A stretch of DNA of 64,000 bases from Candidatus Krumholzibacteriales bacterium. GTDB taxonomy: Bacteria; Krumholzibacteriota; Krumholzibacteriia; Krumholzibacteriales; WJIX01. The position numbers were made by a program, and so were the translations under genes. The DNA lies in contig JAWODM010000014.1 of the NCBI GenBank assembly GCA_046483305.1, positions 59,367 to 123,366 of the forward strand, written 5' to 3'. Within the stretch, counting starts at the first letter, position 1. Each line of letters begins with the position of its first letter. Below the pieces are notes generated by a model. The model did not search any database, had not been told where the DNA came from, and saw only the letters and a list, made by a program, of their open reading frames with translations. Positions 3,249 to 22,304 of the stretch are shown here, piece after piece.

Positions 3249-3260
3249 AGGGTGAGGAGT

Positions 3261-4217
3261 ATGACAGTCGGGAAAAAGAGAAGACTTGATTTTGAGGACC
3301 CGGTGTACGAACTGGAGGAGAAGATCGAAGCGGGAAAGCAGAGGGGGCTGGAACCGGAGTCCGCCGAAATGAAAAAACTGAGGGAGAGGCTGGAGGAGCT
3401 CGAAGCCAGAGTATACAGCGGGCTTTCCCCCTGGGAGGAGGTTCAGCTGGCAAGGCATCCCGACCGGCCCACCGCTGTTCAGTATATGAATGAAATTTTC
3501 GATGAATTCCTTGAATTTCATGGCGACAGGTATTTCGGTGATGACCCGGCGGTGGTTGGGGGGCTGGTTTCCCTGAACGGAAGAAGGATGGCGGTGGTAG
3601 GGCATGAAAAGGGGAGAAATACCAGGGACAGGCTCAAGCGCAATTTCGGAATGGCATCCCCGGAGGGTTTCAGGAAGTCGCTCAGACTGATGAGGCTGGC
3701 CGAAAAATTCGGGCTTCCGATTATCTCTTTCGTGGATACTCCGGGCGCTTATCCGGGGGTAGGGGCCGAGGAGAGGGGCCAGTCGGCGGCTATTGCTTCG
3801 AATCTCAAGAACCTGTTTGATATATCGGTGCCGATTATAGTAATAATTATCGGCGAAGGCGGGAGTGGGGGTGCTCTCGCTCTGGCTGTGGGGGACATAG
3901 TCCTGATGATGGAGCATGCGGTGTACTCGGTAATTTCTCCGGAAGGATGCGCCGCGATACTTTACAAGAACAAGGAAAAGGCGCCGGAGGCCGCGGCTTC
4001 GCTGAAGCTGACCTCGGCCAACTGCCTGAAGCTGGAAGTCATAGACGAGGTCATCAGCGAGTGCCATGGAGCCGCCCACCGGGACCTCCAGGGCAACGCC
4101 CGGAAGATAAAGGGGCTGATTATGCAGAAACTGGCGGAGCTGGACGGGGTGCCGGGTGATACCCTGCTGAAGAAGAGAGTGGATAAGTTCAGCAGAATAG
4201 GTATTTTTAACGGCTGA
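3261..4217 (+). CDS. accA: acetyl-CoA carboxylase carboxyltransferase subunit alpha
   Basis: MTVGKKRRLDFEDPVYELEEKIE N-terminus; GHEKGRNT, FGMASPEGFRKSLRLMRLAEKFGLPIISFVDTPGAYPG and GEGGSGGALA motifs typical of AccA. The ATG at 3261 follows RBS GGGTGAGGAG; the ORF-track start at 3252 is less likely. Confidence 0.9.
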   Translation: MTVGKKRRLDFEDPVYELEEKIEAGKQRGLEPESAEMKKLRERLEELEARVYSGLSPWEEVQLARHPDRPTAVQYMNEIFDEFLEFHGDRYFGDDPAVVGGLVSLNGRRMAVVGHEKGRNTRDRLKRNFGMASPEGFRKSLRLMRLAEKFGLPIISFVDTPGAYPGVGAEERGQSAAIASNLKNLFDISVPIIVIIIGEGGSGGALALAVGDIVLMMEHAVYSVISPEGCAAILYKNKEKAPEAAASLKLTSANCLKLEVIDEVISECHGAAHRDLQGNARKIKGLIMQKLAELDGVPGDTLLKKRVDKFSRIGIFNG

Positions 4218-4265
4218 AACGGATCAGTATAATTACTGAAAAAAGACCTTTGGAAATATTGGCAC

Positions 4266-4295
4266 TTGACCTCGGTATATCTGATGTTCTATAAT
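4266..4295 (+). promoter_or_regulatory. sigma-70-like promoter (TTGACC - 18 nt - TATAAT) upstream of the Trm112-like gene
   Basis: Near-consensus -35 at 4266-4271 and a perfect -10 at 4290-4295 in an AT-rich spacer downstream of accA. Confidence 0.45.
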
Positions 4296-4403
4296 ATATA
4301 TGTCAGCAATAAAATTAATAATTTACTTGAATTGAAACCCCTGAGTTTATGACCTGTGTCTGAATCAGGGTTTTATTATATTGAACCTGCAGAGGTTTTG
4401 AGA

Positions 4404-4574
4404 ATGACTGTGAGTAATGAGCTGCTGAGCATTCTGGCCTGCCCCAGATGTAAACAGGGGGTAAGGCTTGACAGCACGGAAGAATATATCATTTGCGACG
4501 GGTGCGGGCTTAAATATCCGGTAGAAGAGGATATTCCCGTTATGCTGCTGGAAAGAGCAGAAAAAATCGATTAG
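4404..4574 (+). CDS. Trm112/YcaR-like small zinc-ribbon protein (UPF0434)
   Basis: MTVSNELLSILACPRCKQG...CDGCGLKYPVEEDIPVMLLERA shows the CPxC...CxxC pattern and size typical of the Trm112p-like family. The ORF-track start 4356 lies inside an upstream hairpin, so I chose the ATG at 4404. Confidence 0.65.
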   Translation: MTVSNELLSILACPRCKQGVRLDSTEEYIICDGCGLKYPVEEDIPVMLLERAEKID

Positions 4575-4595
4575 ACTGAAAGAAGGGTAGTTCCC

Positions 4596-5003
4596 GTGAC
4601 CGTATTCACCCATTTTTCTGCCGGGGCCCTGCTTGGCTATTTCTCTCCCGGGTTAGCTTTCGCCGCTTTCCTGGGGCTGTTGAGTCATCTGCTGCTCGAT
4701 TATCTGCCGCATTACGACTTTGAGAATGTATGGCTGGAAATATTATTGGGCTGCGCCGTTCTGGGCTTTCTTATAGCGGGCAGGAGCTGCACCGCTAATA
4801 TCTGTATGGGAGGACTGGTGGCGGTGCTGCCGGATGTGGAGAATCTGCTCTGGAAACTGGGAGCGATCAGGCGGGAGAGGCGGATATTTCCATCTCACAC
4901 CGGCCTGATACCCCACGGAAGGGAGGCCGGAAGACTCAATCTGGCGGCACAGGTTGTTTTCTCTGCCACTGTTGTTGGTTTCCTGCTTTGGAGTAATAAA
5001 TGA
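4596..5003 (+). CDS. YdjM-like membrane-bound metal-dependent hydrolase family protein
   Basis: Small polytopic membrane protein with FTHFSAG and SHLLLDYLPH motifs resembling the YdjM/DUF457 family. Its stop overlaps the next gene's start (ATGA at 5000-5003). Confidence 0.45.
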   Translation: MTVFTHFSAGALLGYFSPGLAFAAFLGLLSHLLLDYLPHYDFENVWLEILLGCAVLGFLIAGRSCTANICMGGLVAVLPDVENLLWKLGAIRRERRIFPSHTGLIPHGREAGRLNLAAQVVFSATVVGFLLWSNK

Positions 5004-8000
5004 AAAGATTAATGATCATAATACTTGTTTTTGCCGTATCCACCCCGGCGCTGAGCTCCGAGCCTCAGGTGAGGATTATAGATTCTGACGGCAGGGGAAT
5101 GGTTGTGGAGGTAACCAGCCCTCCTTACCGGAGAATCCCCGGGCCTGGCGGCCCGGCCAGCGGAGGAGAGATAATAGAAGTTCCCGGTTATGAATTGATT
5201 ATGGAAGAAGACAGGCCGGTGCTTCCTCGCCGCAGGCATCTGTTCTCGGTTGGTTCCGTCTCTGAGATAAAAGTAGAAGTTATTGAAACCGAAACGGAAA
5301 TAATTGAGGGCGCCAAACCTGCCATATTCCATTACGGTTTTGAAATCAATCAGAATTTATGGGAGGGGGCCGGAATCCTGCCCGAAAAGGATAACAGCTT
5401 TGTATTTCTCAGAAAAGCCGGACTATACAGGAAGAAACCCCTCGCCCTGGTAGAGGTCCGGCCGGTGATTTTCAATGAGGAAACGGGGCGGATGACATTC
5501 GCTTCCAGGATTTTATTCAGAATCTCTCACAGTTTCTCTGAGCCGGAAAGAGGAGCGGGCCTGCCCGGTTTCATACTGGGCGCAGGGGACGAAAGCCCCG
5601 TTTCGATAAGCAGGCCTGAAGCGCGGCATTCAGATTTCCAGTTTGGAGAATCAGATCAGTGGGTGAGGCTGGAAGTTCCGGAAACGGGGATATACAGGGT
5701 CGATTATGACGCCCTTCATGATAATGGAATAAACCTGATGGGGATCGATCCCTCCGGGATACGAATCTTCTCAGGGGGGCATTTCTCACAGAATACCAAT
5801 CTTTTTCAGCAGCCGGAGTCAGTCGTGGACGGGGGAAGTTTCAAACAGGATTACAGTATGTCCGAGCATGCCATAAGGCTGGTTGGGATGGAGGACGGCA
5901 CCTTCGATCCCGGCAACTATATTCTGTTCTTTGGCGTGGGAGTGGAAGGGTGGACTGATTATCTGGAACCTGAGGCGGAATCTCACGAACGTTACGACAA
6001 TCTCTACGAAAAGAATAATGTCTACTGGCTGAGCCTGGGAGGAAACTTCGCAGGCGAACCGGCCAGAATGGAATCTCTTGATACCGCCCCCTCCGGCAGC
6101 TCGCCGGAGAACACCATTGATTCCTATATCGAGAGGCTCCATCTGGAGGAGGACCGGGAATATTTCCCGCTTATCTCCGACGACAGATGGGTATGGGATT
6201 TCCTGGTATCCGGGGGGAATAAATCCACCAGAAAGGAATTCAGCGTTCATGATATCGTGAGCAGCGGCTGCAGAATCAGAACTATCGGTTTCGGGGGAAA
6301 GGACAGCGTAACCGACCTGGCCAGGTGTTATCTCAATGACGTCCTGGTGGGGGAAATGGCCTGGATCGGCTCCGACGGCAGTTTCAACCCCGATACCCTT
6401 GATGTCAACGTATCCTCACTCAGAGAGAGCAGCAACTACTTTGAATACCGGAAAACAGACAGCGGGATGGAGATGAATATATACTGGTATCAGGTTTTTT
6501 ACGAGAGGTACCTCAGGCCCGATCCCGATTCCGGAGATCTTGATTTTTCCGCTCCGGGCGCCGGCGGATCCACCCGTTTCATCCTCACGGAGTTTTTCGG
6601 AGAAGACCCATTTATCTTCGATGTTACCGACTATTACAATCCGGTATTACTGGAAGGAGCATATTCTTCCAATGATTCGGTGATCTTCGATTACGGGCTC
6701 GGCACATCTTCCGGGCATTTCATGGCGGTTACCCCTTCCGGCATAAAGGAACCCGGGATAGAGAATTCAGGCAGTATTCCTTCGTTGAGGGATGAACAGG
6801 CGCCTTCCTCCATGGTTGTGATATACCACGGCGCCTTCGAGGAAGCCGCTCTCGAGTATGTGGCGCACCGTTCCGGAAATAATTCTCCGGGTGTGATAAG
6901 GGCGGTGGATATAGACGATGTCTATAATAATTTCTCCGGCGGGCTGAAGGATCCCCTGGCAATAAGAAATTATCTGAAATACCTGTATGACAACTATTCA
7001 GAGGGCGGGGAACCGGCGATAGAATACGCCCTGCTGATGGGAAAGGGAACTTTCGATCCCAAGGATATCAAGGGGGCGGGGAAGGATTTCATTCCATTCT
7101 TCTACAGGACCGTGGGGGGATTTAATGTTTTCGTGGAATACGATGACTTCCTGGCCAGGCTGGACGACACCGGCGACGACTTCGTGGATATCGCCATGGG
7201 AAGGCTGCCCTTTCAGAATTCGCAGGGGGCGGGTAATTACATGGACAAGCTCCGGGGTTACGAAGCGGAAGATAACAACGGCGCCTGGAAGAATAAACTC
7301 ATATTCGTGGCCGACGATGAACATCAGGGAGACAGCCACACGCAGTTTGAGCATATGCAGCAGACCGAACGGATGAGTTCCAACGCAATTAAGCGGGATC
7401 ATTTCGATATCAGCGAAGTTTATCTTCACGAATATCCATTTGACGGTTCCACCAAACCGGAGGCCGCGGCGGCTCTCGCGGAGGAATGGAATGAGGGAGG
7501 TCTGCTGGTCTGTTATTTCGGACACGGTTCTCCATACCAGCTGGCGGACGAGCTGGTACTTAAGAAGTCAGATATATATTCTCTGAATAACGGTAACCGG
7601 CTGCCCCTGTTCCTGCCTCTTTCCTGTTCGGTGGGGGATCAGGAAAAGTTATATGATACATCCCTGTCGGAAGATCTGATCCTCGCCGAAGGAAGGGGGG
7701 CTATTGCCTCCATCGCGGCGGTGACCATAACACTGCCCACCTGGAATGAGGATATGTGCCGTCTCTTTCTGCTGAGGTTGTGGCCGGAGGGGACCCTTGA
7801 TTCCGAAACGGTGGGGAAGGCCCTGAGTTACGCTAAAATAAACAGCCTGACCGCGTATCCCTATATCCTTTCCGGCGACCCCTCCATGAAAATGGCAATG
7901 CCCGAGCTCAACGTCAGGCATGATTACTCCACCATCGACACCCTGGTTACCGGGTTCAGATACTCGGAGAGGGGTTCGGTAATGGTGGATGGCTCTCTTG

Positions 8001-8914
8001 ACCCCGGGTTCAACGGAACCGCCGAAATAATCGTTCGGGAAGCAGAAAAGCGGTTTGAAGTTAATAATTATGATTATAACCACGAGGGCGCGGTAATGTA
8101 CCGGGGAACCTCGGAGATAACCGGAGGTATATTCGATTTCCAGTTTGTAGTGCCTCTTCGCTGCAGGATAGGCGACCGGGCCAGGCTTAGAAGTTATGTC
8201 TACAGCGATGATTACCGTGACGGCGTGGGCGCCTGTGATACCCTCAGGATTATCCAGAATTCCACGCCTCCGGCAAACGACGGGCCTCCCAGAGTCAGCA
8301 TGTACTTCAACAATATGGCTACCAGGGTTAAAAAGGGCTCGCGGCTGTTTGTTGATATAGCTGATGATAACGGTATAGCCATACTGGGCAAGGATCCCCA
8401 GAATTCGATATTGCTGGAGTTCGATGACAGCGGATACCCCATACAGGTTACGGATTATTTCCAGTATGATCATAATTCATACACCAGCGGAGGGCTGGAA
8501 TACTCACTGAATGAGGATTTTGATATCGGAGACCACTCGGTTCTCCTGAGGGTATTCGACAATCTCGGGGAGATGTCGACCGATACCCTGAACTTCTCCA
8601 TAGTCGAAGAGGGGGTGCATAAGATAAGTGATGCCTTTAACTTCCCCAATCCGCTGAGTGAGAGCACCAATTTTGTCTTCCAGCTTACCTCGCCGGCGAA
8701 GGTGAAATTTGCGATTTATAATCTTTCCGGAAAGAAGATCTGGGAGAGAAGGATCAGCGCAGTGGAAGGATACAACAGCATTTACTGGGATGGAACGGAT
8801 TATGCGAATAATACTGTCGCTAACGGAACTTATATATACCTGATAGACGCGAAATTCCCCGGAACACTGGGACGAAACGAGAAAGTGAAGGGCAAGGTGG
8901 TAGTTCTCAAATAG
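5000..8914 (+). CDS. porU: PorU-like peptidase C25 (gingipain family) protein with T9SS C-terminal domain
   Basis: Signal peptide. C25-type catalytic dyad context: GHGSPYQ (~7520) followed by LPLSCSVGDQ (~7625). C-terminal ~85 aa (8657-8914) match the T9SS sorting-domain pattern (FNFPNPLSE...YNLSGKKI...NGTYIYLI). Sits immediately upstream of a PorV-like gene, the conserved PorU-PorV arrangement. Confidence 0.65.
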   Translation: MKRLMIIILVFAVSTPALSSEPQVRIIDSDGRGMVVEVTSPPYRRIPGPGGPASGGEIIEVPGYELIMEEDRPVLPRRRHLFSVGSVSEIKVEVIETETEIIEGAKPAIFHYGFEINQNLWEGAGILPEKDNSFVFLRKAGLYRKKPLALVEVRPVIFNEETGRMTFASRILFRISHSFSEPERGAGLPGFILGAGDESPVSISRPEARHSDFQFGESDQWVRLEVPETGIYRVDYDALHDNGINLMGIDPSGIRIFSGGHFSQNTNLFQQPESVVDGGSFKQDYSMSEHAIRLVGMEDGTFDPGNYILFFGVGVEGWTDYLEPEAESHERYDNLYEKNNVYWLSLGGNFAGEPARMESLDTAPSGSSPENTIDSYIERLHLEEDREYFPLISDDRWVWDFLVSGGNKSTRKEFSVHDIVSSGCRIRTIGFGGKDSVTDLARCYLNDVLVGEMAWIGSDGSFNPDTLDVNVSSLRESSNYFEYRKTDSGMEMNIYWYQVFYERYLRPDPDSGDLDFSAPGAGGSTRFILTEFFGEDPFIFDVTDYYNPVLLEGAYSSNDSVIFDYGLGTSSGHFMAVTPSGIKEPGIENSGSIPSLRDEQAPSSMVVIYHGAFEEAALEYVAHRSGNNSPGVIRAVDIDDVYNNFSGGLKDPLAIRNYLKYLYDNYSEGGEPAIEYALLMGKGTFDPKDIKGAGKDFIPFFYRTVGGFNVFVEYDDFLARLDDTGDDFVDIAMGRLPFQNSQGAGNYMDKLRGYEAEDNNGAWKNKLIFVADDEHQGDSHTQFEHMQQTERMSSNAIKRDHFDISEVYLHEYPFDGSTKPEAAAALAEEWNEGGLLVCYFGHGSPYQLADELVLKKSDIYSLNNGNRLPLFLPLSCSVGDQEKLYDTSLSEDLILAEGRGAIASIAAVTITLPTWNEDMCRLFLLRLWPEGTLDSETVGKALSYAKINSLTAYPYILSGDPSMKMAMPELNVRHDYSTIDTLVTGFRYSERGSVMVDGSLDPGFNGTAEIIVREAEKRFEVNNYDYNHEGAVMYRGTSEITGGIFDFQFVVPLRCRIGDRARLRSYVYSDDYRDGVGACDTLRIIQNSTPPANDGPPRVSMYFNNMATRVKKGSRLFVDIADDNGIAILGKDPQNSILLEFDDSGYPIQVTDYFQYDHNSYTSGGLEYSLNEDFDIGDHSVLLRVFDNLGEMSTDTLNFSIVEEGVHKISDAFNFPNPLSESTNFVFQLTSPAKVKFAIYNLSGKKIWERRISAVEGYNSIYWDGTDYANNTVANGTYIYLIDAKFPGTLGRNEKVKGKVVVLK

Positions 8915-9008
8915 TATCCTGAATCTTTCCGGGGAGCGGAATGTTTACTGCTTGACCGGGTAAGGTAACAATTATTATTTTAAGGTGGTATCAAAGAGAG
9001 GAAATGAT

Positions 9009-10007
9009 ATGAAAAAAATTACTGCAGCTTTGTTGTCAGTCTTAACAGCAATTCTTCTGATCCCCGCCGGCGATACCTTCGCTCAGGGACAGGCGGGAGC
9101 ATACTGTCTGAAGATAGCGCCCGGCGCAAGAGCTAATGGAATGGGTGGAAGCAGTGTGGCTATGGTCGAGGACGCTACCAGTCTCTGGTGGAACCCGGCC
9201 GGAATGTCCATGCTGGAATATTCAATGGCGGATATAATGCATACCAAACTGGTACCTACACTGGCCGCCGATGTTTTCTTTGAATATGCCGGCATAGTTC
9301 ACCACCTGGGTAGCGGGATCAGTGTGGGGTTCGCTTTTCAGTACCTCTCCTACGGCGAGTGGGTGGCCACCGATGAAGGCGGAGAAGAGCTCGGAAACGC
9401 CAGCAGTTACGAGATGTCTCCCATGGTAGGCGCCTCCATGAAACTGGGCGAGAATTTCAGCGTGGGTATGAACTTCAAGTTTGTATATATCGATCTGGCG
9501 CCGAAGTGGGCTACGGTGGAGGGAGAAGAAGGTGTGGGGCATTCCGTGGGCCTGGATATAGGATGCCTTTACAGGATCCCTGAATTCAGCTATGCCGGCT
9601 ACAGGGTAACCGGATTGCGGCTGGGAGCGGCCATATCCAACCTGGGGCCGTCCATTACCTATATCGACAGCGATCAGGCGGCCCCTCTGCCCCGGACCGT
9701 CAGGGTAGGGTTCGGTTATACCGCAGTCAGCAGCGAGCTGTTCGAGGTGAACGTGGCAGGTGACGTGGAAAGGCTGCTGATAGACGGAGATATCGATCCG
9801 ATATATCATGCCGGGAGTGAGTTCGTCTATACCGACCTTTTCGCGGTCAGAGTCGGTTATCTGTATGATAAGGACGGCGACGTCAAGGGTGTAAGCTACG
9901 GGCTGGGATTCAATATAAGCAACCGCATCAGGATTGATTACGGTAACGTTCCCCAGCATGAGGACCTTGACAGAGTGCACCGATGGTCACTGGGCCTTAA
10001 TTTCTAG
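9009..10007 (+). CDS. porV: PorV/PorQ-family T9SS outer-membrane shuttle protein
   Basis: Signal peptide, then the hallmark LKIAPGARANGMGGSSVAMVEDATSLWWNPAGM motif (GARxxGMGG...NPAG) of the PorV/LptO family. Size and composition fit a beta-barrel and the C-terminus is LNF. ATG at 9009 follows RBS GAGAGG. Confidence 0.7.
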   Translation: MKKITAALLSVLTAILLIPAGDTFAQGQAGAYCLKIAPGARANGMGGSSVAMVEDATSLWWNPAGMSMLEYSMADIMHTKLVPTLAADVFFEYAGIVHHLGSGISVGFAFQYLSYGEWVATDEGGEELGNASSYEMSPMVGASMKLGENFSVGMNFKFVYIDLAPKWATVEGEEGVGHSVGLDIGCLYRIPEFSYAGYRVTGLRLGAAISNLGPSITYIDSDQAAPLPRTVRVGFGYTAVSSELFEVNVAGDVERLLIDGDIDPIYHAGSEFVYTDLFAVRVGYLYDKDGDVKGVSYGLGFNISNRIRIDYGNVPQHEDLDRVHRWSLGLNF

Positions 10008-10033
10008 AATCCCCTGGAAAGGTTATTATTGAG

Positions 10034-13000
10034 TTGCGCTTAATTCGATATAGATGGTTATCTGCTGCGTTGCTACTGGTATCGTTAATCTTTCCGCGAA
10101 CCGGAAGCGCTTCGGACAAACTGCCGGTTCTGGAAAAACTCCCCTCGGGGAACCTGATCATAACGGGCCGCTACACGGCTGGCCGCCGGGAGAACTATCC
10201 GCGAAGAAGAAGGTTTAATTACGACCGGCCGTCCATGAGGGAATTCAAAAGGAGGGATGCCAGGCCTCCCCTTCGGTCTTCCGCGGAAGTATCCGGAACC
10301 CGGCACGTAGCCCTGATAAGAATAGGATTCAATACTGACCGGAAAGACGGCCTTTCCAGCCTGGATATAAATGCCGGCGAGGGTGGGTTTATCCTGGAGC
10401 CGGATCAAGACTGGATTATAGATCCCCCTCCGCATGACAGAGACTACTTTAACGCACATATGACCTGCCTGAGAAACTATTATCATGCTCAGTCCTGCGG
10501 CAGGCTCGATATTACCTGGGAAATATTCCCCGCCGCCGACAACAGCTGCTACAAGCTCTCCGACCTCGCCGATTACGGGCCCGGAAGCGGGATGTGGACA
10601 ACCGGCCAGCTGGTTGATTTTGTTCACGCCTCTCTGGATGTAGCCGATCCGGATGTTGACTATACCCGGTTCGATGCAGTGATTATAGCTCACGCCGGTC
10701 CAAATCTTCAGAGCGACGTAAACAATGATACCCCCAATGATGTCCCGTCATTCTTCGCCCGGCTGGGAGATGAAGACCGGTTTGAAACCGGCGACGGATT
10801 AATAATTACCGATTGTTCGGTAATTCCGGAGACCGGTATTCAGGATGGTTACTACTCCGGCATTTCGGCTGTTCTGGCCCATGAATTCGGCCATCAGCTG
10901 GGCCTTCCGGACCTGTACGATATTACCAGCGGCGGAACCGGCATAGGGATCTGGGGCAATATGGGAAGCGGCGGCCAGCTGGGAGTATCTCTGGGAGGGG
11001 AGCGGATAGACGGGATTATTCCTGCCGGCCTCAGCGCCTGGTCCCGGTACTACCTGGGATGGGTCGAGGCGGATACCGTGGAATCTTTCAGAGAGGCCAT
11101 GGAGATTCCCGCCGTGGAGAAGGTTCCGGCTGAGATAATAAGGATAGATATATCCAATGACGAATACTTTCTTATAGAGAACAGGTGCGTGGAGATTGAT
11201 CAGTATCTGACTCTCCTGATAGCCGACCAGGAAACCGGTGTGGTGCTGGGTGTCTACAACTGCAAAAACTGCACGGAAGAGAACATTTACGACGATGGAT
11301 TCATTTATGATCTTGAACTCTCCACCGAATATGACTGTCTTCTGCCGGTGGACCCGGATCTTCCCGCGGGGCCGTTTGACATTAAGCCTGATTTCGGGCC
11401 TGGCCTGCTGATATGGCACATAGACGAGAGGCTGATTGCGTCCAGGTGGGAGGATAACACGCTCAACAGCCGAGAACCATTCTCGATAAGGCTTATGGAA
11501 GCCGGGGGGGTTCTGGATATAGGCGATCCCACTTCGCCGCTCAGCTACGGCAATTACGATGACGCTTATTACCAGGGCAACAGCAATAGCTTTTCAGATG
11601 TGACCATACCCGGCGCGTGGAGTAATATGGGAGTCCCTTCGGGGGTGACGGTGGAGAATATCTCGGCCAGGGATACTGTGATGACTTTCGACGGAGGAAG
11701 AAGGGCGGTTCTTGAAGCGGGGAATATATTCGCCGATACGCTCCCTGCTGCCGAATGCCTGTTACCGGTGGGGAGCCAGCCCGGAATGCTGGCGGTTGAT
11801 CATCAGGGAAACGGCTGGCTGGACGGGATGCCATTCCCGGTTTTCAGCATTGGCTCTTCCCCGCTGCTTCCTTCTGCTTACGGGCCGGGTTTCGCGCTTG
11901 GCGGGGATGCGGTAATTATAGGAGATGCGGAAGGGTATATTCACGCGATTTCTATCTCAGACTGGTCTGAGGCTGGCGGGAACTGGCCGGTTGCCACCTC
12001 CGGATTGAGCGCATACCCGGTGGTTATGGAAATGGAAACAGGAATGGCGGTGGCGGCTGCGGATGAGGAGGGCAGAATTTCCGTGTTGAACAGCTCGGGC
12101 GTGGAAGAATATTCGTTTCAGCTGCCGTCAGGACAGGTAAACGCGGCTAACATTTCGGCTGTGGTCGATTCTGCGGGGCTTACCGGCCGGCTGATCTTCT
12201 TATCGGCGGGGGACAATTCGGTATACCTGTGGTGGTGGAATTTCATCCTCGGAGAGTCCGAATCCGTGAGACTTCCGGTTTCAGCTGATGAAGTATCGGG
12301 CGCCGCTGCACTGGCTGCCGGCGATATCCTGCCCGGGAAAACGGGTTTGGAGGTATATCTGACCGCTCTGCGGGCGGGAAAGATCTATCTCTGCTCCGCT
12401 GACGGGGTAATATTCGAGAGAGATCTCGGCCAGGGGGTCCAGCCCCCCGCGGTGGTGGATATCAACGGAGATACCGTTCTGGATATAGTAGTTACCGACG
12501 GAGAGTCCATATATGCCATCTCAGCTTCGGGGGCCAATCTTACCGGCTGGCCCAGGAAGATTAACGGCATGCATAATTTCCGGCGCAGGCAGAAGATAGC
12601 CGTTCCGGTTTCCGCTGTCGGAAGCGGAGGCGGGGCCAGGGTGATTGCCGTTTCGACGGACGGAATTATATTTACTCTGGATCACCGGGGGGAGCTGCTG
12701 GGCGGCGGCTATCCTGAAAGGATAGCCGGATCGGTAAGACAGGCGCCGCTATTTGTCGATATGGGCGGAGAAGGCGCTTTCGGTTTTATCGATGTCCTGG
12801 AGAACGGGACCGGAGAATATTACCAGAACAGGCCTGAGGCAATCAGAGTCAAATGGAGATCCGGGCCTTTCCGGCCGGATGAGATAGCGACTTCCTGGTT
12901 CGGCTCAAGCGCTGATGCAATGCGAAGATCGTTTGCGACTGGAGTGGGTAGATGGAGCAGCCCCTCGGCGAATTGGGCCGCCATGGACGATAACCTGATA

Positions 13001-13258
13001 ATTTATCCGAACCCGGTTGAGGGGGGAAGGGCCGGTTTTCAGTTCAGGGCTCCTTCCGGATCTCACGCTTCTCTGATGGTATTCAATATTTCCGGAGAGA
13101 TCGTGCTCCAGAGGGAAAAGAGGTGTGAGGGAGGAGAGGAACATGAAATACCGGTACAGCTGTCCGGCACCGGTTCCGGGGTTTACATCGCCCGCCTGGT
13201 GATTACCTCCGGAGGAAGAAGCTTCAAGACACTTAAGAAATTTGCTGTAGTAAATTAA
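10034..13258 (+). CDS. M6/immune-inhibitor-A-like zinc metalloprotease with FG-GAP repeats and T9SS C-terminal domain
   Basis: Signal peptide. HExxH zinc site VLAHEFGHQLGLPDLYD (HEFGH at 10880-10894). Downstream FG-GAP/VCBS-like repeats (VVDINGDTVLDIVVTDGES). C-terminus IIYPNPVEGG...MVFNISGEIV...GVYIARLV fits a T9SS sorting domain. Confidence 0.7.
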   Translation: MRLIRYRWLSAALLLVSLIFPRTGSASDKLPVLEKLPSGNLIITGRYTAGRRENYPRRRRFNYDRPSMREFKRRDARPPLRSSAEVSGTRHVALIRIGFNTDRKDGLSSLDINAGEGGFILEPDQDWIIDPPPHDRDYFNAHMTCLRNYYHAQSCGRLDITWEIFPAADNSCYKLSDLADYGPGSGMWTTGQLVDFVHASLDVADPDVDYTRFDAVIIAHAGPNLQSDVNNDTPNDVPSFFARLGDEDRFETGDGLIITDCSVIPETGIQDGYYSGISAVLAHEFGHQLGLPDLYDITSGGTGIGIWGNMGSGGQLGVSLGGERIDGIIPAGLSAWSRYYLGWVEADTVESFREAMEIPAVEKVPAEIIRIDISNDEYFLIENRCVEIDQYLTLLIADQETGVVLGVYNCKNCTEENIYDDGFIYDLELSTEYDCLLPVDPDLPAGPFDIKPDFGPGLLIWHIDERLIASRWEDNTLNSREPFSIRLMEAGGVLDIGDPTSPLSYGNYDDAYYQGNSNSFSDVTIPGAWSNMGVPSGVTVENISARDTVMTFDGGRRAVLEAGNIFADTLPAAECLLPVGSQPGMLAVDHQGNGWLDGMPFPVFSIGSSPLLPSAYGPGFALGGDAVIIGDAEGYIHAISISDWSEAGGNWPVATSGLSAYPVVMEMETGMAVAAADEEGRISVLNSSGVEEYSFQLPSGQVNAANISAVVDSAGLTGRLIFLSAGDNSVYLWWWNFILGESESVRLPVSADEVSGAAALAAGDILPGKTGLEVYLTALRAGKIYLCSADGVIFERDLGQGVQPPAVVDINGDTVLDIVVTDGESIYAISASGANLTGWPRKINGMHNFRRRQKIAVPVSAVGSGGGARVIAVSTDGIIFTLDHRGELLGGGYPERIAGSVRQAPLFVDMGGEGAFGFIDVLENGTGEYYQNRPEAIRVKWRSGPFRPDEIATSWFGSSADAMRRSFATGVGRWSSPSANWAAMDDNLIIYPNPVEGGRAGFQFRAPSGSHASLMVFNISGEIVLQREKRCEGGEEHEIPVQLSGTGSGVYIARLVITSGGRSFKTLKKFAVVN

Positions 13259-13268
13259 GGGAGTCAGG

Positions 13269-14264
13269 ATGTCAAGAGCAGGAAAGCGCATCACGGCGGC
13301 AGCGGTTCTGATACTGTTTCAGGCGGCCGGAAATTTCTCGGAGGCAGAAGGCAGCGGCCTTCTGACGGCTCCTTCCAGTCTGAAACTTTCCCATTCCGAA
13401 AGAATCGAAAGCAGAAGGAACGAAAGACTGGTCTCAATATTCGATCAGAACAGAGATTTCAGAATCGCCTCCGGCGGCAGCTCGGAGGAGGCCCTTCGCC
13501 TCAACGGGGAAAGGATTCTTTCTCCCGGTATGGTGGCACCTGACAGGGATTCCGGGCCATACACCGCTGCCGGCAGGAGAAAAAGGAATATGGCGATATC
13601 GATTATCGGCTCGGCCCTGCTTCCCGGGCTGGGCGAGATGTATATGTATTCCAGAACCGGAGAAAAATCGATCCTTGGCCGGGCTCTGGGGTTTATCGCG
13701 TTCGAAGCGTACCTGTGGTACGGATATTTGCACAATCACGACAGGGGCAAGGATTTCAAGCGTCAGTACGAAGAATACGGCGACGCTCACTGGAGCCAGG
13801 AAAGGTTCCTTCAGAACCATCCGATCTGTTATACTACCTTTCAGGGGGGGTGCGACAGCTGGCAGCAGTACAATGAGATAGGTTCAGATGATCACTCTTC
13901 AGAATATTTCTATTTCTTCTATACCGCCAAAGAGGTGGACAGGGAGGAATATTACGAGAATATGGGCAAATACGATGCCTTCCTCTACGGCTGGGACGAC
14001 TGGAACGGGGAGTACCTGCACGAGGGGGGAGAGCCCAACTACTGGACCCCTCATAGAACGTATTACTGGGACCTTCGGGGAGAGAGTAATAAATACCTGC
14101 TCAGGGCGGATTACCATGTAATGGGAATGATCGCGGCCAGGGTTGTTTCGATGGTCCAGGCCGGATGGATAGCCCACAACCGGGGGTCAGCGCCGGAGGA
14201 ATGGTCTCTGGAGATAGACAAATCACCCCTGGATTACAGATGCAGCATTAACTACAGGTTTTAG
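13269..14264 (+). CDS. hypothetical secreted protein, LPGLGE-motif family, paralog A
   Basis: Signal peptide. Central IIGSALLPGLGEMYMY...GRALGFIAFEAYLWYGY segment and a Y/E/W-rich region, ending INYRF. Shares architecture and motifs with the next gene. Confidence 0.5.
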   Translation: MSRAGKRITAAAVLILFQAAGNFSEAEGSGLLTAPSSLKLSHSERIESRRNERLVSIFDQNRDFRIASGGSSEEALRLNGERILSPGMVAPDRDSGPYTAAGRRKRNMAISIIGSALLPGLGEMYMYSRTGEKSILGRALGFIAFEAYLWYGYLHNHDRGKDFKRQYEEYGDAHWSQERFLQNHPICYTTFQGGCDSWQQYNEIGSDDHSSEYFYFFYTAKEVDREEYYENMGKYDAFLYGWDDWNGEYLHEGGEPNYWTPHRTYYWDLRGESNKYLLRADYHVMGMIAARVVSMVQAGWIAHNRGSAPEEWSLEIDKSPLDYRCSINYRF

Positions 14265-14278
14265 GGAGGAGATAGAAT

Positions 14279-15154
14279 TTGCGTAAAATATTTGTTTTCA
14301 TAACAGTGATTTTCCTGCCGGTAAACCTGTTTTCCTCATCTCTTTCCATGGACCCGGCGCCGGTCCCTGAACCGGAACAGAAAAGGTCGGTTTTCAGAAG
14401 TTCATATTCGATAGGCGGTTCCGGCTCAGGTGGCATCAGGCTCTCTCTGGCCGGCAGGGAAGGGATCAAATTACAGCTCCTGAGCGCCAGGCGGGGCTAT
14501 GGCTTTGACGGCACCTTTGAACCCGGCAGCCGTGATTATTCCACAGGAGGGATTATAGCCCGCAATGTGCTTCTGCCCGGACTGGGCCAGCGGAAGATGG
14601 GACAGAGAATGCGCTCCCGGATATATTTTTTCCTGGAAGGAGCCGCCTGGGTGGGACTGGGCACGTTCTTCTGGCAGAAAATGGCCAGGACCGGCGCGTA
14701 CGAGGAGTACGCGGTGGCCTACGCCGGTGTGGAAGAAAAAGGGCTTTCAGAGGATTACTATGAGACCATCGGCAATTTCATGAGCAGCGACGGCCCGGGC
14801 GGGTATAACGAATATGTTATGAGAGAAGCCAGGGACCTTTACTACCCCGACCAGGAGGCCATACAGGACTATTATGAGGCCAATGCTCTGACTGGCGACC
14901 AGTCCTGGAGATGGCTTTCCGAGAGTACCTATGACAAATATAATTCACTCCGCAAGGGAGCAAACAGCTCCGAGAGAAGGGCGGTTTATTCCCTGTTCTT
15001 TATGCTGGGATTGAGGCTGATCAGCAACATCGATGCGGTCAGGTCTATTATGACCGATGAAGGAGATCAGGAGCAGGCCGGACAGGGCGGGGCAGCCATA
15101 GATATTCATCAGAACGGGGAAGGTATTTCCGTCGTTCTGAAACGGCCCTTCTGA
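14279..15154 (+). CDS. hypothetical secreted protein, LPGLGQ-motif family, paralog B
   Basis: Signal peptide. IIARNVLLPGLGQRKMG...LEGAAWVGLGTFFWQ segment, DYYE/YYP-rich region and C-terminal Phe. Paralogous to 13269-14264. Confidence 0.5.
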   Translation: MRKIFVFITVIFLPVNLFSSSLSMDPAPVPEPEQKRSVFRSSYSIGGSGSGGIRLSLAGREGIKLQLLSARRGYGFDGTFEPGSRDYSTGGIIARNVLLPGLGQRKMGQRMRSRIYFFLEGAAWVGLGTFFWQKMARTGAYEEYAVAYAGVEEKGLSEDYYETIGNFMSSDGPGGYNEYVMREARDLYYPDQEAIQDYYEANALTGDQSWRWLSESTYDKYNSLRKGANSSERRAVYSLFFMLGLRLISNIDAVRSIMTDEGDQEQAGQGGAAIDIHQNGEGISVVLKRPF

Positions 15155-15210
15155 TCGAACCGGCGGCGCCGGCAGCCAGCCCGCCTCTTTCTGCAGGGAC
15201 AGATTCGGAT

Positions 15211-16122
15211 ATGCGGAAATTACACCGGTTGATTCTATTGTTAATTTTTGTTCCGGCGGCGGTTCATGCCGCCGTGCAGGAGGAAGAGCCTGCTGCCGGG
15301 GATTATCCGAATATAGTGGAAGCTGATTCGGTTCTTGCCGGGCTGAAGGAACCGCTGGGAATCTCCGCCGGGGCCCGCGGCGGGATATATGTGGCCGACG
15401 GGATGAGCGGCAAACTTTTCAAATATATGGCCGGCCGGGAAGTTCTCGAATTTCCGGTGCCCCGGTCGCTTGTTTCGATATATCCGGTTGATGTGGCGGC
15501 CGGAGCGGACCCCTTTATATATGTACTGGATTACTCCTCCGGGAATGTACTAAGATACGACTACAGGGGAGGATATCTGGATGTACTTATATCGTTCGAT
15601 GATTTCAAGCCCTCTTCAATATCGGCGGGAGCGGGAGGGAGCTTTATTCTGACAGATATGGAGAATCATTCGGTCCTGGTACTCAATCCCCTCCTGGACA
15701 GAGAGGTGGAGATAGAGGGTTACGGCTGGGAAGCGGGCTTTTTCAATAAACCGGCGAAAGCTGTAATACTGCGGGACGGGAGGCTGGCGGTTGCCGATAC
15801 CGGCAACCGGAGAGTGCAGATATTTTCGTCCTCGGGCCTCTATCTGAGGCAGTTATCCCCGCCGGACAGCCTTGGCTTCAAATCTCCAAGGTCGCTCTGC
15901 TGCGGCCCGGAGGGAAATATATTCGTTGCCGATACCGGGAGGGGTTCGGTTTTTGCCTACTCGCCCGGAGGGGAATATATCACCGCGATAGATTCCTATT
16001 CGGGAAAGAAAATATCGCCTTCCGCCCTCACTGTCGATCTGAATGATAACCTTTTCGTTGCCGATCTGCTTTCCAGGTCGATTCTCATATACAGGCTTGT
16101 TTATCCGGACAATGAGCGATGA
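15211..16122 (+). CDS. NHL-repeat beta-propeller protein, secreted
   Basis: Signal peptide. Repeated VADTGNRRVQIFSSSG and VADTGRGSVFAYSPGGEY segments typical of NHL repeats. Confidence 0.65.
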   Translation: MRKLHRLILLLIFVPAAVHAAVQEEEPAAGDYPNIVEADSVLAGLKEPLGISAGARGGIYVADGMSGKLFKYMAGREVLEFPVPRSLVSIYPVDVAAGADPFIYVLDYSSGNVLRYDYRGGYLDVLISFDDFKPSSISAGAGGSFILTDMENHSVLVLNPLLDREVEIEGYGWEAGFFNKPAKAVILRDGRLAVADTGNRRVQIFSSSGLYLRQLSPPDSLGFKSPRSLCCGPEGNIFVADTGRGSVFAYSPGGEYITAIDSYSGKKISPSALTVDLNDNLFVADLLSRSILIYRLVYPDNER

Positions 16123-19100
16123 AGCGTTACTCCCTTTCTATTATTATCATGGTTGTATTCACCCTCGCGCCTCTGCGGGCAAATCCGCTCGCGGAGCCGG
16201 GAAGAGGTCCGGTTTCGAGTAAGTCTTTTATCCTTTCGCCGGGCCAGAGCCGTATCGATACCGGCATATCTTTCATAAAACCGGGTTCCGATTCCCTTAT
16301 CATTGACGGCAGGGAAATCGAAAGGGGTGCCGGATACCGGATCAGTTCCCTCAGCGGGGTGATTATCCTGAACAACCCCGCTGAAGGCGGAGAGATGGCG
16401 ATCCTGTATTACAGCAGGTTCCATTTCCCCTTTCCCCCAGTGATGGCGAGAAGGTTCCCCGGAACCGGGGAGGCGCCTTTCAGAACTCCCCTCGCGGATA
16501 CTGCGGCGCTGTTCAGCAGTAAGAAAATTAATCCCTACCGCCTCAACGTTTCGGCCAGCAAATCGGTGGGATTCTCGGTAGGTTCCGCGAGAGGGGTGGG
16601 GATAGATCAGAGCCTGAGAGTGACCATTGCTGGAAAACTTGCCGAAGACCTGGAGGTCAAGGCGTTCCTTTCCGATGACGACCTGCCGGTACAGCCGGAA
16701 GGGAACACCGAGGAGCTCAAACGCCTGGACCGGATATCCATAAATATCAGGAGCAGGCATACCGAAGTAAAGCTCGCCGATTTTGCCTCCTCCCTGGACT
16801 GGTCCGTCTTTTCTTCCTTCGACAGGGAGCTCAGGGGAGGGGAGATTACGGTAAAAGCGGCCGGTCAGCGTTTCATGACAGGCGGAGGCATAGCCAAGGG
16901 CAGGTTTGAAACTATCAACATCACGGGGCGCGAAGGCGTTCAGGGCCCCTACCAGCTTCTGTCCGCCCGGAGGTTCAACGGAGTAATAGTGATTCCGGGT
17001 TCAGAGTCTGTATACCTGAATGGCAAATTAATGAAGAGAGGCCAGGAGAACGATTATGTCATAGATTACAACAGGGCGTCGGTTGCCTTTACCGAGAGAG
17101 TGCCGGTAACCGACGATTCGGAAATCGTAATAGAATTCCAGAAGGGCGAGAGCAATTACGAGCGGAATACCTTCATGGGGGGATGGTCCGCCCCCCTCCG
17201 GGAAGGCGCTGTCAATATCAGGGCCTTCTTCCTGACCGAGAGCGATGATAAGGACTCCCCTCTGGCCGGAGAGTTTACCGACGAGGAGATTTCAGCCCTG
17301 GCGGCGGCGGGAGACAACCCTGACAGCGCCTTTGCGTCCGGGGTGGAGAAGACAGATGAAGGGGGCAGCGGCTACATCTATTCGGAGGCGGATTCATATT
17401 TCGTGTTTGTAGAATCAGGCGCTGAATACCAGCTGGATTTCTACAAAGCCGCAGGCGGGGGGGATTATGATACCGACGGGTTTTCTTCCAGCGGAGAGCT
17501 GAAGTACCGTTACGTTGGCGAGGGAGAAGGGGATTACAGAATAGGCAGGCGGCTCCCCCTTCCTGAAAGGAAGGATCTGGTGGCGGTATCCGCCGATGCC
17601 GGGTCCGATCATCTCTTTCTGAGGGCGGAAGGAGATTTCAGCAGGCATGACAGGAATACCCTGTCCGGGCTCGATGACGGCGACAACAACGGGGCCGCCT
17701 ATACAGTGGAGGGGGGCCTGAGAGGGTTCGATTTTCTGGAATCAACCCTCAATCTGAAAGGAAGTTACTCATCGCTGGAGAGCTCGTTTGCCGCTCCCGA
17801 CCGGGTCCGCAGGGCCTATTTCTACAGGAACTGGAACCTGGAGGGAGTAGAGCTTGAAGGAAGGGAGAATATATCGGGCCTGAAGCTGAACTGGGAAAGG
17901 GACCGGTGGTGGAAGCTGGAAGGGAGCTACAGCAGGTTGACCCGAACCGGTGGGACCTCTGCGGGACGGGGGCGGGCTGAGGGAGAACTGGGGAATCCGG
18001 AAAACAGGGGGTTAAGGTTCCAGTGGCTGAGAACGGAGAACTCCGACCGGAGAAAACGGGAATTCGCTCTGGCGAAAGGGGTGTTTGCGATGTGGAAGCT
18101 GGTTCCGGGGATTACCCTGGACCGGGAGAGGTACCGGAGTTTCAGCCCCGCGGGGGCGGATACCGGAAGGTATTACAGGCAGGGAAAAATCTTTCTGGGA
18201 ACCCGGGATCTGAAAGGTTTCGATGCAGGTATCTCTTTCAACCGCAGGCTTACCGATAACCTGAGAGAGAGCGGCGGCGCGTGGTTCAGGGCCAGGGAGA
18301 ACGACGAGATTATTTTGAACGGTTCATACTCCGGTGGAACCAGGATGATAGATTTCTTTCTGAGCCACCGGGAGAGCGATGAGATAGAGTCTGGAAGCTC
18401 CAGCACCTTTGACCTGGCCAGGATCAAGTACCGGGATTCATACAGGCCGCTGGGGGTCGCTACCGACATCGGCTACAGGATCACTTCCGGCGAGGAGAGA
18501 AGAAGAGAAAGAGCTGTTATCTTCGTGGGAGAGAATCAGGGAGATTACGATGAAGAAGGCAACGAAGTGGGCCAGAAGAGGGGCGACTATATGCTTGTGT
18601 ACATCCCCGGAACGGGTACCGAAGGGGTCAGGACGGTTGAGCTGAACTGGAAGCTGAGCTTCGGGGATGGAATCAGGGGGTTCGGTTCAATGACGGATGA
18701 GGATGGCGGCCTGTTCAACCTGATAAAGAAGAATGTATCCCTGGACCAGATATTCTCTCTTTCCGAAAAATCAACCACCGATGAACTCTTCCGGCTCTAC
18801 ATCATGGATCCCGATCTTCTTCAGAGGGATGACGTGACGGTTGAAGGGTACAACCGGCTCAGGCAGGAATGGAACTTCCTCAGGGACGTCAGGAAGTACA
18901 ACCTCGGTTTTACCTTCTCCAGGGAGGACAGGGAGGATAACAGGACTGAAGGGGCTTCATCCAGCAGCTATCTCAGGGAGATGAGGCTTAAATCGGAGTA
19001 TTTGCCGGTTCCCTCACTGAGCATATCCCTGGAAGGAACCAGGACGGACAGAAGCAGTATTTCTGATAACAGGGCGGTACAGAGCTACGATATCCTCGCC

Positions 19101-21126: not shown

Positions 21127-21163
21127 TAACGGTAAATTCCCGGATGACAGTGTTGGCAGGTAA

Positions 21164-21191
21164 ATTAATTACAGGAAATTCGATTTTTCTG
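21164..21191 (+). repeat. 28-nt direct repeat, copy A (attaattacaggaaattcgatttttctg)
   Basis: About 25 of 28 positions match copy B at 30874-30900 in the same orientation. Copy A lies 38 nt after the Omp85 stop. Confidence 0.5.
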
Positions 21192-22250: not shown

Positions 22251-22272
22251 TTCAATCTCACCCCGGTAAAGT

Positions 22273-22304
22273 CCGGGAGCCTCCCAAAGCGCGGAGGCTC
22301 CCGG
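22273..22304 (-). other. GC-rich 12-bp stem / 8-nt loop hairpin in the protease-to-small-gene spacer
   Basis: ccgggagcctcc (22273-22284) is a perfect reverse complement of ggaggctcccgg (22293-22304). No following U-tract on either strand. Confidence 0.4.

Follow-up and report, generated by a model that had tools for sequence, protein, structure and literature searches.

An M6-type metalloprotease gene with predicted propeller and type IX sorting domains in a conserved porU-porV cluster of a Candidatus Krumholzibacteriales genome

The M6 gene and its neighbours

The window analysed here (the whole 64,000-nucleotide stretch, from a Candidatus Krumholzibacteriales bacterium, whose numbering is used throughout) carries a run of genes on its plus strand in which an M6-like metalloprotease gene follows two type IX secretion system (T9SS) genes:

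5000-8914, plus strand: porU, C25-type T9SS sortase, 1304 amino acids (AAs), two genes upstream of the M6 gene (NF033707 543.5 bits against a cutoff of 420; Pfam Peptidase_C25 E 2e-70)
8985-10007, plus strand: PorV-family outer-membrane barrel, 340 AAs, ending 26 nt before the M6 start (NF033709 210 bits against a cutoff of 90; Pfam PorV 79.5 bits)
10034-13258, plus strand: M6-like metalloprotease gene with propeller and T9SS C-terminal domain (CTD); complete ORF, 1074 AAs, TTG start, stop included
13269-21126, plus strand: five tightly packed genes downstream of the M6 gene, encoding proteins of 331 AAs, 291 AAs, 303 AAs (NHL-repeat), 1122 AAs and 557 AAs (POTRA/Omp85)

The ORF at 10034-13258 is a real gene. 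Its product and the NCBI MAG protein P0001, recorded as 'immune inhibitor A [Candidatus Krumholzibacteriales bacterium]', are 100% identical, except that the annotated start of P0001 makes it 12 AAs shorter; the longer start is common to the 84% identical protein P0002 and yields a proper signal-peptide n-region. An earlier sequence-only reading of this DNA had placed the same ORF immediately after porUV, and both parts of that description are borne out: the exact ORF is among those listed, its plus-strand translation has no internal stops, and a PorU gene (by NF033707) and a PorV-family gene lie directly upstream.

The downstream genes are spaced by gaps of 10, 14 and 56 nt and then by overlaps of 4 and 35 nt, and terminator-like matches within the cluster are weak and no commoner than in shuffled sequence. 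The 331 and 291 AA proteins have no Pfam or NCBIfam matches, and a BLASTP comparison of the two as possible paralogs finds nothing in common beyond an LLPGLG patch (E 0.08); the 1122 AA protein has no sequence matches in the PDB. Further along, the window encodes a second large protease cargo, a 2454 AA subtilase with a CTD (22314-29678, minus strand).

We compared this gene order across 80 species-level loci from many FCB lineages. A PorV gene lies directly upstream of the M6 gene in 66 of 66 loci and a PorU gene upstream in 46 of 48, and the five downstream genes, taken in order from the 331 AA protein to POTRA/Omp85, are conserved in 47 of 60, 44 of 52, 27 of 50, 40 of 47 and 32 of 42 loci. 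Five out of five distant homolog loci share accA-PorU-PorV-M6 together with the five downstream genes. The M6 gene has a fixed place, the third, in a porU-porV-M6 cluster that recurs in many FCB lineages. Membership of a PorU2/PorV2 cassette (NF052324, NF052325) was considered and rejected, since the neighbours score as the canonical PorU and PorV families, both here and beside bona fide M6i proteins (below).

Domain organization of the M6 protein

The protein consists of a signal peptide, a conserved N-terminal segment, an M6 catalytic domain, a β-rich middle domain, a propeller of about eight blades and a type-A T9SS CTD, in that order. A full-length AF2 model of the 1074 AAs has a pLDDT of 89.5 and a pTM of 0.89, and a model of the N-terminal half has a pLDDT of 92.6. 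The features are as follows:

10034-10111, plus strand: putative Sec signal peptide, AAs 1-26, MRLIRYRWLSAALLLVSLIFPRTGSA, from direct reading of the sequence
10112-10285, plus strand: conserved N-terminal segment, AAs 27-84, a candidate propeptide; β-hairpin, then an Arg-rich disordered linker
10286-11068, plus strand: M6 (thuringilysin-type metzincin) catalytic domain, AAs 85-345
10880-10912, plus strand: zinc-binding motif H283-E284-F-G-H287-Q-L-G290-L-P-D293 (HExxHxxGxxD)
10961-10963, plus strand: Met310, candidate Met-turn methionine, WGNMGSGG; invariant in 90 sequences, aligns to InhA WSLMSGGS
11069-11677, plus strand: β-rich middle domain, AAs 346-548, packed against the catalytic domain (pLDDT >85)
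11678-12913, plus strand: β-propeller of about eight blades, AAs 549-960, apparently FG-GAP-derived and degenerate in this lineage
12446-12553, plus strand: sole intact FG-GAP calcium-type blade motif, P805-PAVVDINGDTVLDIVV...GANLTGWP-R841, with one DxNGD-type motif at AAs 809-817
12986-13255, plus strand: type-A T9SS C-terminal sorting domain, AAs 985-1074 (YPNP ... GVYIARL ... KFAVVN), TIGR04183

AAs 1-26 are probably a signal peptide, and AAs 2-19 form a helix in the structure model. The segment that follows contains a modelled hairpin at AAs 29-48 (consensus PVLxRxxxG; strands 29-35 and 41-48, block-mean pLDDT 77-90) and low-confidence stretches at AAs 51-58 and 70-82; the hairpin and a FxFDRPS stretch are kept in homologs. 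InhA is made as a zymogen, and by analogy AAs 27-84 may be a propeptide that would hold the enzyme latent.

The sequence-only reading had placed the protein in the M6/InhA type on the strength of a HEFGHxxGLPDLYD motif (HEFGHQLGLPDLYD, AAs 283-296), and this assignment is well founded. Pfam Peptidase_M6 (PF05547) hits the protein at 39.4 bits (cutoff 22), over only 49 residues (AAs 276-324), and also hits 42 of 43 homologs. HExxHxxGxxD is present in 118 of 120 homologs, and H283, H287, G290, D293, Y295 and M310 are invariant in an alignment of 90 sequences. Because of this conservation and the above-cutoff Pfam score, the motif is not a chance occurrence. The NCBIfam M6 domain model TIGR03296 gives 86.3 bits, under its cutoff of 110.8, which marks the protein as a member of a divergent subfamily. 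We use HExxHxxGxxD, with Asp as third ligand, as defined in PMC12237041, according to which the third zinc ligand of thuringilysins is an Asp and is accompanied by a Met-turn. The zinc motif aligns to InhA AHAFGHDLGLPDEYD (from the E-to-A crystal mutant), the catalytic domain has a fold like that of InhA, and 358 residues of the M6 protein align to InhA2, taking in part of the middle domain. A thermolysin-like fold with a Glu third ligand, as had been expected, is not what we find; judging from these alignments, the fold is instead that of a metzincin and the third ligand is the Asp of HExxHxxGxxD. With its intact and conserved active-site motif, the protein is predicted to be an active zinc metalloprotease of the M6 metzincin type.

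The region of AAs 549-960 is modelled with confidence as a β-propeller of about 400 AAs. Roughly 500 AAs of calcium-binding FG-GAP/VCBS repeats and an integrin-like propeller had been described here; the propeller fold stands, but the repeats and the specific likeness to integrin do not. We discard the idea of many calcium-binding FG-GAP repeats in the window protein, since it has a single such motif and scores 14.1 bits (E 0.077) with Pfam FG-GAP_3, under the cutoff of 26.9. In the alignment, residues D809 and P840 of that motif are invariant and D813 is nearly so; other orthologs have a second DxDGDG motif on the neighbouring blade, which is degenerate in the window protein (VGSGGGARVIAV). 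FG-GAP_3 (PF13517) matches 20 of 43 homologs and FG-GAP (PF01839) matches 12 of 43, and these matches, with the two adjacent canonical motifs in orthologs, argue that the propeller is FG-GAP-derived by homology. The best structural superpositions are with the 8-bladed Cake8, BamB and YxaL and not with integrin, and the propeller is as much like BamB, YxaL and the PQQ-type propellers as it is like integrin.

The CTD noted in the sequence-only reading is supported by TIGR04183 (27.4 bits against a cutoff of 23) and by a modelled C-terminal β-sandwich of about seven strands (AAs 989-1073). Pfam PF18962 gives 23.2, below its cutoff of 27, and matches 36 of 43 homologs. A profile of the M6 family finds the solved CTDs 8glj_D (E 1.4e-4) and that of PorZ in 5m11 (E 0.005). 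We also considered a special 'retained CTD' class common to the M6 protein and PorU and rejected it, as the CTDs of the M6 protein, PorU and the 2454 AA subtilase are equally distant from one another.

Orthologs that have lost the zinc site

The zinc ligands are lost in 12 of 73 orthologs, from Bacteroidota, Ignavibacteria, Calditrichaceae and KSB1 MAGs. These form one clade in a neighbour-joining tree, with the window protein among the active majority (61 of 73), and from the sequences compared the loss appears confined to one derived clade. The zinc-less orthologs occupy the same slot, downstream of PorU and PorV genes that score as canonical (934-966 and 257-260 bits, respectively), and their ex-catalytic domain is the best conserved part of the protein, with 31-37% identity against 15-21% in the propeller.

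Three of the four inactive orthologs scanned pass the 600 bit cutoff of NF052323 ('T9SS-dependent M6-like inactivated metalloprotease', T9SSA_dep_M6i), with scores of 774 (L077), 840 (L087), 668 (L037) and 552 (L075) bits. The window protein scores 233 bits against that cutoff and so lies outside NF052323 by its curated threshold; it retains H283, E284, H287 and D293, where NF052323 members have ASFGS, IMFGS or HQFGH...S. The NCBIfam name, in calling the M6i family 'T9SS-dependent', treats it as cargo.

Two points here go beyond the sequence-only reading, namely the fixed place of the gene in the porU-porV cluster and its relation, as an apparently active counterpart, to NF052323.

Proposed role

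Since porU and porV precede the M6 gene in all the related genomes examined, its product is probably a dedicated partner of theirs and not a random cargo, and the fixed third-gene position, taken together with retention of the gene after loss of the zinc site, leads us to infer such a role. Synteny by itself does not separate a machine accessory from a housekeeping cargo that is co-transcribed with export genes. The model that we favour, in which our confidence is about evenly balanced, is that of an active M6 metzincin, exported by the T9SS, with its propeller as a binding platform, that is a dedicated partner of the PorU/PorV module. The Sec pathway would carry the protein over the inner membrane, and the type-A CTD would then route it through the type IX secretion system across the outer membrane. 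There, on the cell surface, the metzincin domain would cut peptide bonds, and the propeller, whose roughly eight blades include one conserved calcium-type FG-GAP blade, would serve as the binding platform. The conserved role would be that of dedicated partner to the PorU/PorV attachment (sortase/shuttle) module, bound at or beside it, in a coupling that may be physical or functional. In active lineages such as this Krumholzibacteriota genome, the protein might in addition act there as a processing enzyme, probably on T9SS cargo or on the pro/CTD segments of such cargo.

A broader idea, which we advance tentatively as possible but on the doubtful side, is that M6/M6i is a conserved and hitherto unrecognised third subunit of the PorU-PorV attachment/processing module of the T9SS in FCB outside the well-studied Bacteroidia. 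It would then be an ancestral, protease-bearing counterpart of PorZ, whose catalysis was lost once toward Ignavibacteria and some Bacteroidota while the scaffold role was kept.

The M6 protein could instead be T9SS cargo of an ordinary kind, a scavenging protease that acts on environmental proteins from the surface or after release, and whose slot reflects inherited gene order and co-regulation and no role in the machinery. We consider this rather unlikely, but it accounts for a good deal. A signal peptide, an enzyme domain and a type-A CTD are the full set of cargo hallmarks; NCBI uses the names 'immune inhibitor A' for the protein and 'T9SS-dependent' for its sister family; and the same window encodes the subtilase with its own CTD. 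The wider neighbourhood (dnaE, accA, Trm112) is deeply syntenic too, which points to a generally conservative gene order in these lineages. However, the link to PorV (66 of 66) and PorU (46 of 48) persists across many FCB lineages at a mere 24-30% protein identity, which is much tighter than expected for a nutritional enzyme. A scavenger that has lost its zinc site should moreover decay or vanish, whereas in the inactive clade the protein is full-length, its gene has kept the slot, and the former catalytic domain is its best conserved part.

It seems improbable that the protein is a functional equivalent of PorZ, acting as a surface adaptor whose propeller picks up the anchoring glycolipid or glycan for delivery to the PorU sortase, with its CTD retained and its protease activity secondary or used only in self-maturation. 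Such a role would fit the propeller plus CTD plan, which is that of PorZ, the encoding of the protein with PorU and PorV, and a Foldseek match to PorZ 5m11 (E 6e-11); it would also fit the inactive orthologs, which by keeping the gene indicate that catalysis is dispensable for its retention. But the M6 protein has one propeller of about eight blades and not two of seven, and the propeller is its least conserved domain, which would be odd for a conserved ligand-binding module. The zinc motif is also under strong purifying selection in the active lineages (118 of 120), so catalysis matters there. Finally, the notion that the M6 call is empty and the protein a pseudo-protease or bearer of a chance motif is effectively refuted: the nearest NCBIfam model is named 'inactivated', the Pfam M6 match is limited to 49 residues and TIGR03296 falls under its cutoff, but the catalytic elements are all there and vary little or not at all among 90 sequences, and the genuinely inactivated orthologs, which differ clearly at the catalytic positions, group in a clade of their own.

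The T9SS literature that we found is almost entirely about a few Bacteroidota, and searches with PorU2, PorV2, M6-like, Krumholzibacteriota T9SS and T9SS immune inhibitor A found no link between the M6 family and T9SS function. In all the species examined, from Krumholzibacteriota to Ignavibacteria, the M6 gene comes after porU-porV. On the favoured model of a PorU/PorV partner it is a concrete candidate for an accessory that is missing from the attachment step, and M6 and M6i are a natural active/inactive pair in which scaffold and catalytic roles could be separated. If it is cargo only, the protein is an unremarkable secreted protease that already carries the annotation 'immune inhibitor A'.

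Comparison with known systems

The M6 protein shares with FG-GAP propellers the DxNGDxxxD calcium-type motif, which it retains on one blade. The propeller of integrin α has seven blades, against about eight here, and profile matches of the M6 family to integrin α-IIb are non-significant (E about 0.8).

InhA1 and InhA2 of Bacillus (MEROPS M6 'thuringilysins', PF05547, PDB 4YU5) have HExxHxxGxxD, the Asp third ligand and the Met-turn methionine in common with the M6 protein. They are secreted, as the M6 protein is predicted to be, and its N-terminal segment may correspond to a propeptide. Sequence similarity to InhA does not extend beyond the region of the motif (phmmer E 7e-4 over 47 residues). 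InhA is a Gram-positive secreted virulence protease with neither a propeller nor a T9SS CTD, whereas the M6 protein has predicted T9SS export and a gene locked to porU-porV.

The gene for PorZ of Porphyromonas gingivalis is presumably not adjacent to porU-porV in that organism. PorZ (PDB 5M11) belongs to the PorQ-U-V-Z attachment complex as its surface subunit. It is built with two 7-bladed propellers and lacks a protease domain, and the M6 protein has no specific similarity to it, in sequence or structure, beyond the CTD and generic propeller geometry. With its two propellers and uncleaved CTD, PorZ binds A-LPS and feeds PorU (PMC8545088). The tie of PorZ to PorU/PorV is experimental (PMC8545088), whereas that of the M6 protein is conserved operon membership; the comparison with PorZ is an analogy and not a family relationship.

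The members of NF052323 share the overall plan of the window protein. They are in the same length class (about 1040 AAs), have an M6-like domain, an FG-GAP propeller and a type-A CTD in the same order, occupy the slot directly after PorU and PorV, and show full-length homology to the window protein at 24-26% identity. They differ from it in the zinc-site region (for example AASFGSYLGLPDLFD or IMFGSQLGLPSLF), which is intact in the window protein. By these comparisons of sequence, the inactivated NF052323 family has in the window protein a counterpart with an intact catalytic site.

Domain structure of the M6 protein

The features discussed here are as follows (nucleotide positions in the window, residues of the M6 protein):

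5000-8914: porU (NF033707, 543 bits; cutoff 420)
8985-10007: PorV-family barrel (NF033709, 210 bits), ending 26 nt before the M6 ORF
10034-13258, plus strand: M6 gene (1074 aa, TTG start, from the ORF listing)
13269-21126, plus strand: five downstream genes (331 aa, 291 aa, NHL-repeat, 1122 aa, POTRA/Omp85)
residues 27-84: N-terminal segment after the signal peptide (model and homologue conservation)
residues 549-960: propeller, about 29 or more strands in sets of four (model)
residues 985-1074: T9SS C-terminal domain, CTD (TIGR04183, 27.4 bits against a cutoff of 23)

The M6 ORF has exactly the coordinates assigned to it by an earlier, sequence-only reading, and its translation contains no internal stops. 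Its product is 100% identical to the NCBI MAG protein P0001 ("immune inhibitor A", Candidatus Krumholzibacteriales bacterium), for which NCBI places the start 12 codons after the TTG at 10034, giving 1062 aa (window 10034-10069). In the shorter form the signal peptide is deprived of its positively charged n-region; the longer start is common to the 84% identical homologue P0002 and yields a normal signal peptide, MRLIRYRWLSAALLLVSLIFPRTGSA, and P0002 supports the longer form.

The M6/InhA-type protease proposed in that reading is borne out by Pfam Peptidase_M6 (39.4 bits, cutoff 22; a span of only 49 residues) and by the zinc motif, HEFGHQLGLPDLYD, at residues 283-296. The family models for this domain are mixed yet consistent: NCBIfam TIGR03296 (86 bits) stays under its cutoff of 110.8, and the top NCBIfam model, NF052323 ("T9SS-dependent M6-like inactivated metalloprotease"), reaches 233 bits where its cutoff is 600. 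The motif has the extended metzincin form HExxHxxGxxD, so the thermolysin-like fold and third-ligand Glu expected earlier were wrong in detail; the third ligand is the Asp of this motif (D293), as in the thuringilysins (MEROPS M6) and snapalysins (PMC12237041). Thus neither the M6 match nor the third ligand, on which the reading had been staked, is missing. By phmmer, VLAHEFGHQLGLPDLYD...WGNMGSGG of the M6 protein pairs with VFAHAFGHDLGLPDEYD...WSLMSGGS of InhA (Bacillus immune inhibitor A); H283, H287, G290, D293, Y295 and M310 are invariant in 90 sequences and E284 nearly so, and 118 of 120 homologues retain HExxHxxGxxD. The motif, the invariant residues and the InhA alignment show the M6 protein to be an M6-type metzincin with an intact active-site motif.

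InhA is made as a zymogen, and by analogy residues 27-84 are a candidate propeptide; they include a conserved hairpin (residues 29-48, consensus PVLxRxxxG, block-mean pLDDT 77-90), followed by an Arg-rich linker, with disordered stretches at 51-58 and 70-82. The middle domain (residues 346-548) is beta-rich, and part of it falls within the InhA2 superposition. The T9SS sorting domain also stands: TIGR04183 is above its cutoff, solved CTDs were matched in a profile search, and the model is a beta-sandwich of about seven strands.

By target TM-score the best Foldseek matches for the propeller are the 8-bladed Cake8 (0.72) and BamB (0.67). A family profile finds designed PQQ-type Cake propellers (E 6e-25) and the FG-GAP-type CRTAC1, PVL lectin and ITFG2 at only 1e-3 to 1e-2; its match to integrin alpha-IIb falls short of significance. 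With the FG-GAP_3 model the M6 protein reaches 14 bits (E 0.077), and it has a single calcium-type FG-GAP motif (PPAVVDINGDTVLDIVV...GWPR, residues 805-841, with D809 and P840 invariant). Other orthologues have two adjacent canonical FG-GAP motifs, the second of which is degenerate in the window protein, and among 43 diverse homologues FG-GAP_3 matches 20 (best E 1.9e-18) and FG-GAP 12. The propeller is FG-GAP-derived and has undergone erosion in this lineage; the phrase "calcium-binding repeats" was therefore an overstatement.

The porU-porV locus

The M6 gene does directly follow porU-porV, as claimed from sequence alone, and both families pass their NCBIfam models. Successive genes of the cluster are separated by 70, 26, 10, 14 and 56 nt, and at the last two junctions they overlap, by 4 and 35 nt. 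By consensus scan only, 4266-4295 is a strong promoter-like site, and the only strong terminator hairpin is at 22273-22304, beyond the cluster. This hairpin (12-bp stem, 10 G-C pairs, then a T-rich tail; the strongest terminator-like site in 4000-22500) has its T-run on the plus strand, sits just outside a minus-strand 2454-aa gene, about 10 nt from its stop codon, and may act in both directions. The latter ORF (22314-29678), convergent with the cluster, contains stretches resembling subtilisin (matches to the mycosin and dentilisin PrtP models), others in common with M36-type sortase-dependent proteases, and a T9SS type-A CTD that TIGR04183 recognises clearly (33.7 bits). Its product is predicted to be a second giant T9SS protease cargo.

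A 135-aa ORF (4596-5003, plus strand) stands right before porU and overlaps its start codon; it matches no Pfam or NCBIfam family, and tblastn finds it in the same position in many related loci (69-162 bits). The five downstream genes are co-conserved with the M6 gene in many FCB lineages, are mostly without family assignment, and look like a so far uncharacterised module of the outer membrane that is connected with porU-porV. The 331-aa and 291-aa signal-peptide proteins have only an LLPGLG patch in common, with a faint DUF5683 match in homologues, and the 1122-aa protein has no match in Pfam, NCBIfam or PDB.

Gene order is alike in five homologous loci on long contigs (L001, L002, L004, L006 and L007; M6 proteins 27-50% identical to that of the window): accA, (Trm112), small ORF, PorU, PorV and M6, then genes for proteins of ~300 aa and ~260-290 aa, an NHL-repeat protein, one of ~1130 aa and POTRA/Omp85. 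Further upstream, the window (65-4217, plus strand) and these loci share the order dnaE, a ~260-aa unknown gene, accA and Trm112 ahead of porU, with Trm112 in four of the five (L006 is without it). A scan with one genome per species gave at least 575 loci encoding relatives, of which the best 80 were used; their MAG labels are Krumholzibacteriota, Eisenbacteria, Fibrobacteraceae, Gemmatimonadota, Aegiribacteria, KSB1, Calditrichaceae, Zixibacteria, Ignavibacteria and Bacteroidota.

Table. Neighbours of the M6 gene in the best 80 loci (tblastn with window proteins; each denominator counts the loci whose flanking DNA was long enough)
PorV, directly upstream: 66/66
PorU, upstream: 46/48
331-aa gene, downstream: 47/60
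291-aa gene, downstream: 44/52
NHL-repeat gene, downstream: 27/50
1122-aa gene, downstream: 40/47
Omp85 gene, downstream: 32/42

The place behind porU-porV is thus a fixed one for the M6 gene in many FCB lineages. Gene order around the cluster is unusually deeply conserved for M6 proteins this divergent, and synteny is therefore weaker as a functional argument.

Orthologues without zinc ligands

Of the orthologues found at this position, twelve lack the zinc ligands (for example AASFGSYLGLPDLFD and SIMFGSQLGLPSLFN; HQFGHQLGLPS is intermediate). Their MAG labels are Bacteroidota, Ignavibacteria, Calditrichaceae, "Cytophagia" and KSB1, two being only "bacterium". In a neighbour-joining tree of 73 orthologues these 12 form a single clade, and the remaining 61, the window protein among them, retain HExxH; the M6 gene is thereby kept, without catalysis, in one derived clade. 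Relative to the window protein the ex-catalytic domain is their best-conserved part (31-37% identity; propeller 15-21%). Three of the four scanned pass NF052323 (L077, L087 and L037 with 774, 840 and 668 bits), and L075, at 552, is just below the cutoff. The inactive family has more than 2700 database matches, most of which are called hypothetical or go by the name "T9SS type A sorting domain-containing protein".

In L077 and L087 the neighbouring genes match the canonical models for PorU (934 and 966 bits) and PorV (257 and 260 bits), not those for PorU2 or PorV2. At L087 (Ignavibacteriae MAG; 11038-14770, plus strand) two extra genes lie between the inactivated M6 gene and the 331-aa-gene homologue, encoding a 221-aa lipoprotein with a FlgD-Ig-like region and a 1020-aa protein with TolB-type propeller matches and a flagellinolysin-like HExxH region; at this locus the latter may be a replacement protease.

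Possible role and relationship to known systems

We give about even weight to an accessory model, in which what is conserved in the M6 protein is a function linked with the PorU/PorV attachment module. It would have a binding or scaffold role at the cell surface with that module, and in active lineages like the window's the enzyme would also act as a protease at that site, with cargo pro-segments or linker/CTD regions as plausible targets. Our literature search found no support for this model, which is a point against it. An ordinary cargo protease merely riding in the porU-porV operon is possible but distinctly less probable; the NCBIfam name treats the NF052323 family as cargo, and the CTD showed no special signature, both of which count against the accessory model. 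In P. gingivalis the attachment module operates together with PorZ, a protein of two propellers and a CTD that stays uncleaved; PorZ binds A-LPS and supplies PorU (PMC8545088). A strict PorZ-equivalent adaptor is unlikely, and the likeness, being architectural only, also weighs against the accessory model. For the window protein a pseudo-enzyme or chance motif is hardly credible beside its invariant zinc-site residues.

The architecture of the M6 protein alone is ordinary and already annotated. The protein is a divergent structural member of peptidase family M6, predicted to work likewise. That its linkage to porU-porV is universal and that the gene is kept after inactivation, points of which our literature search found no mention, gives T9SS biology outside Bacteroidia a lead that can be tested. 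The protein falls outside the PorZ family. Nor does it belong to NF052323, since the score falls short and the site is not inactivated; it is the more widespread counterpart of that family, catalytically intact judging by its residues.
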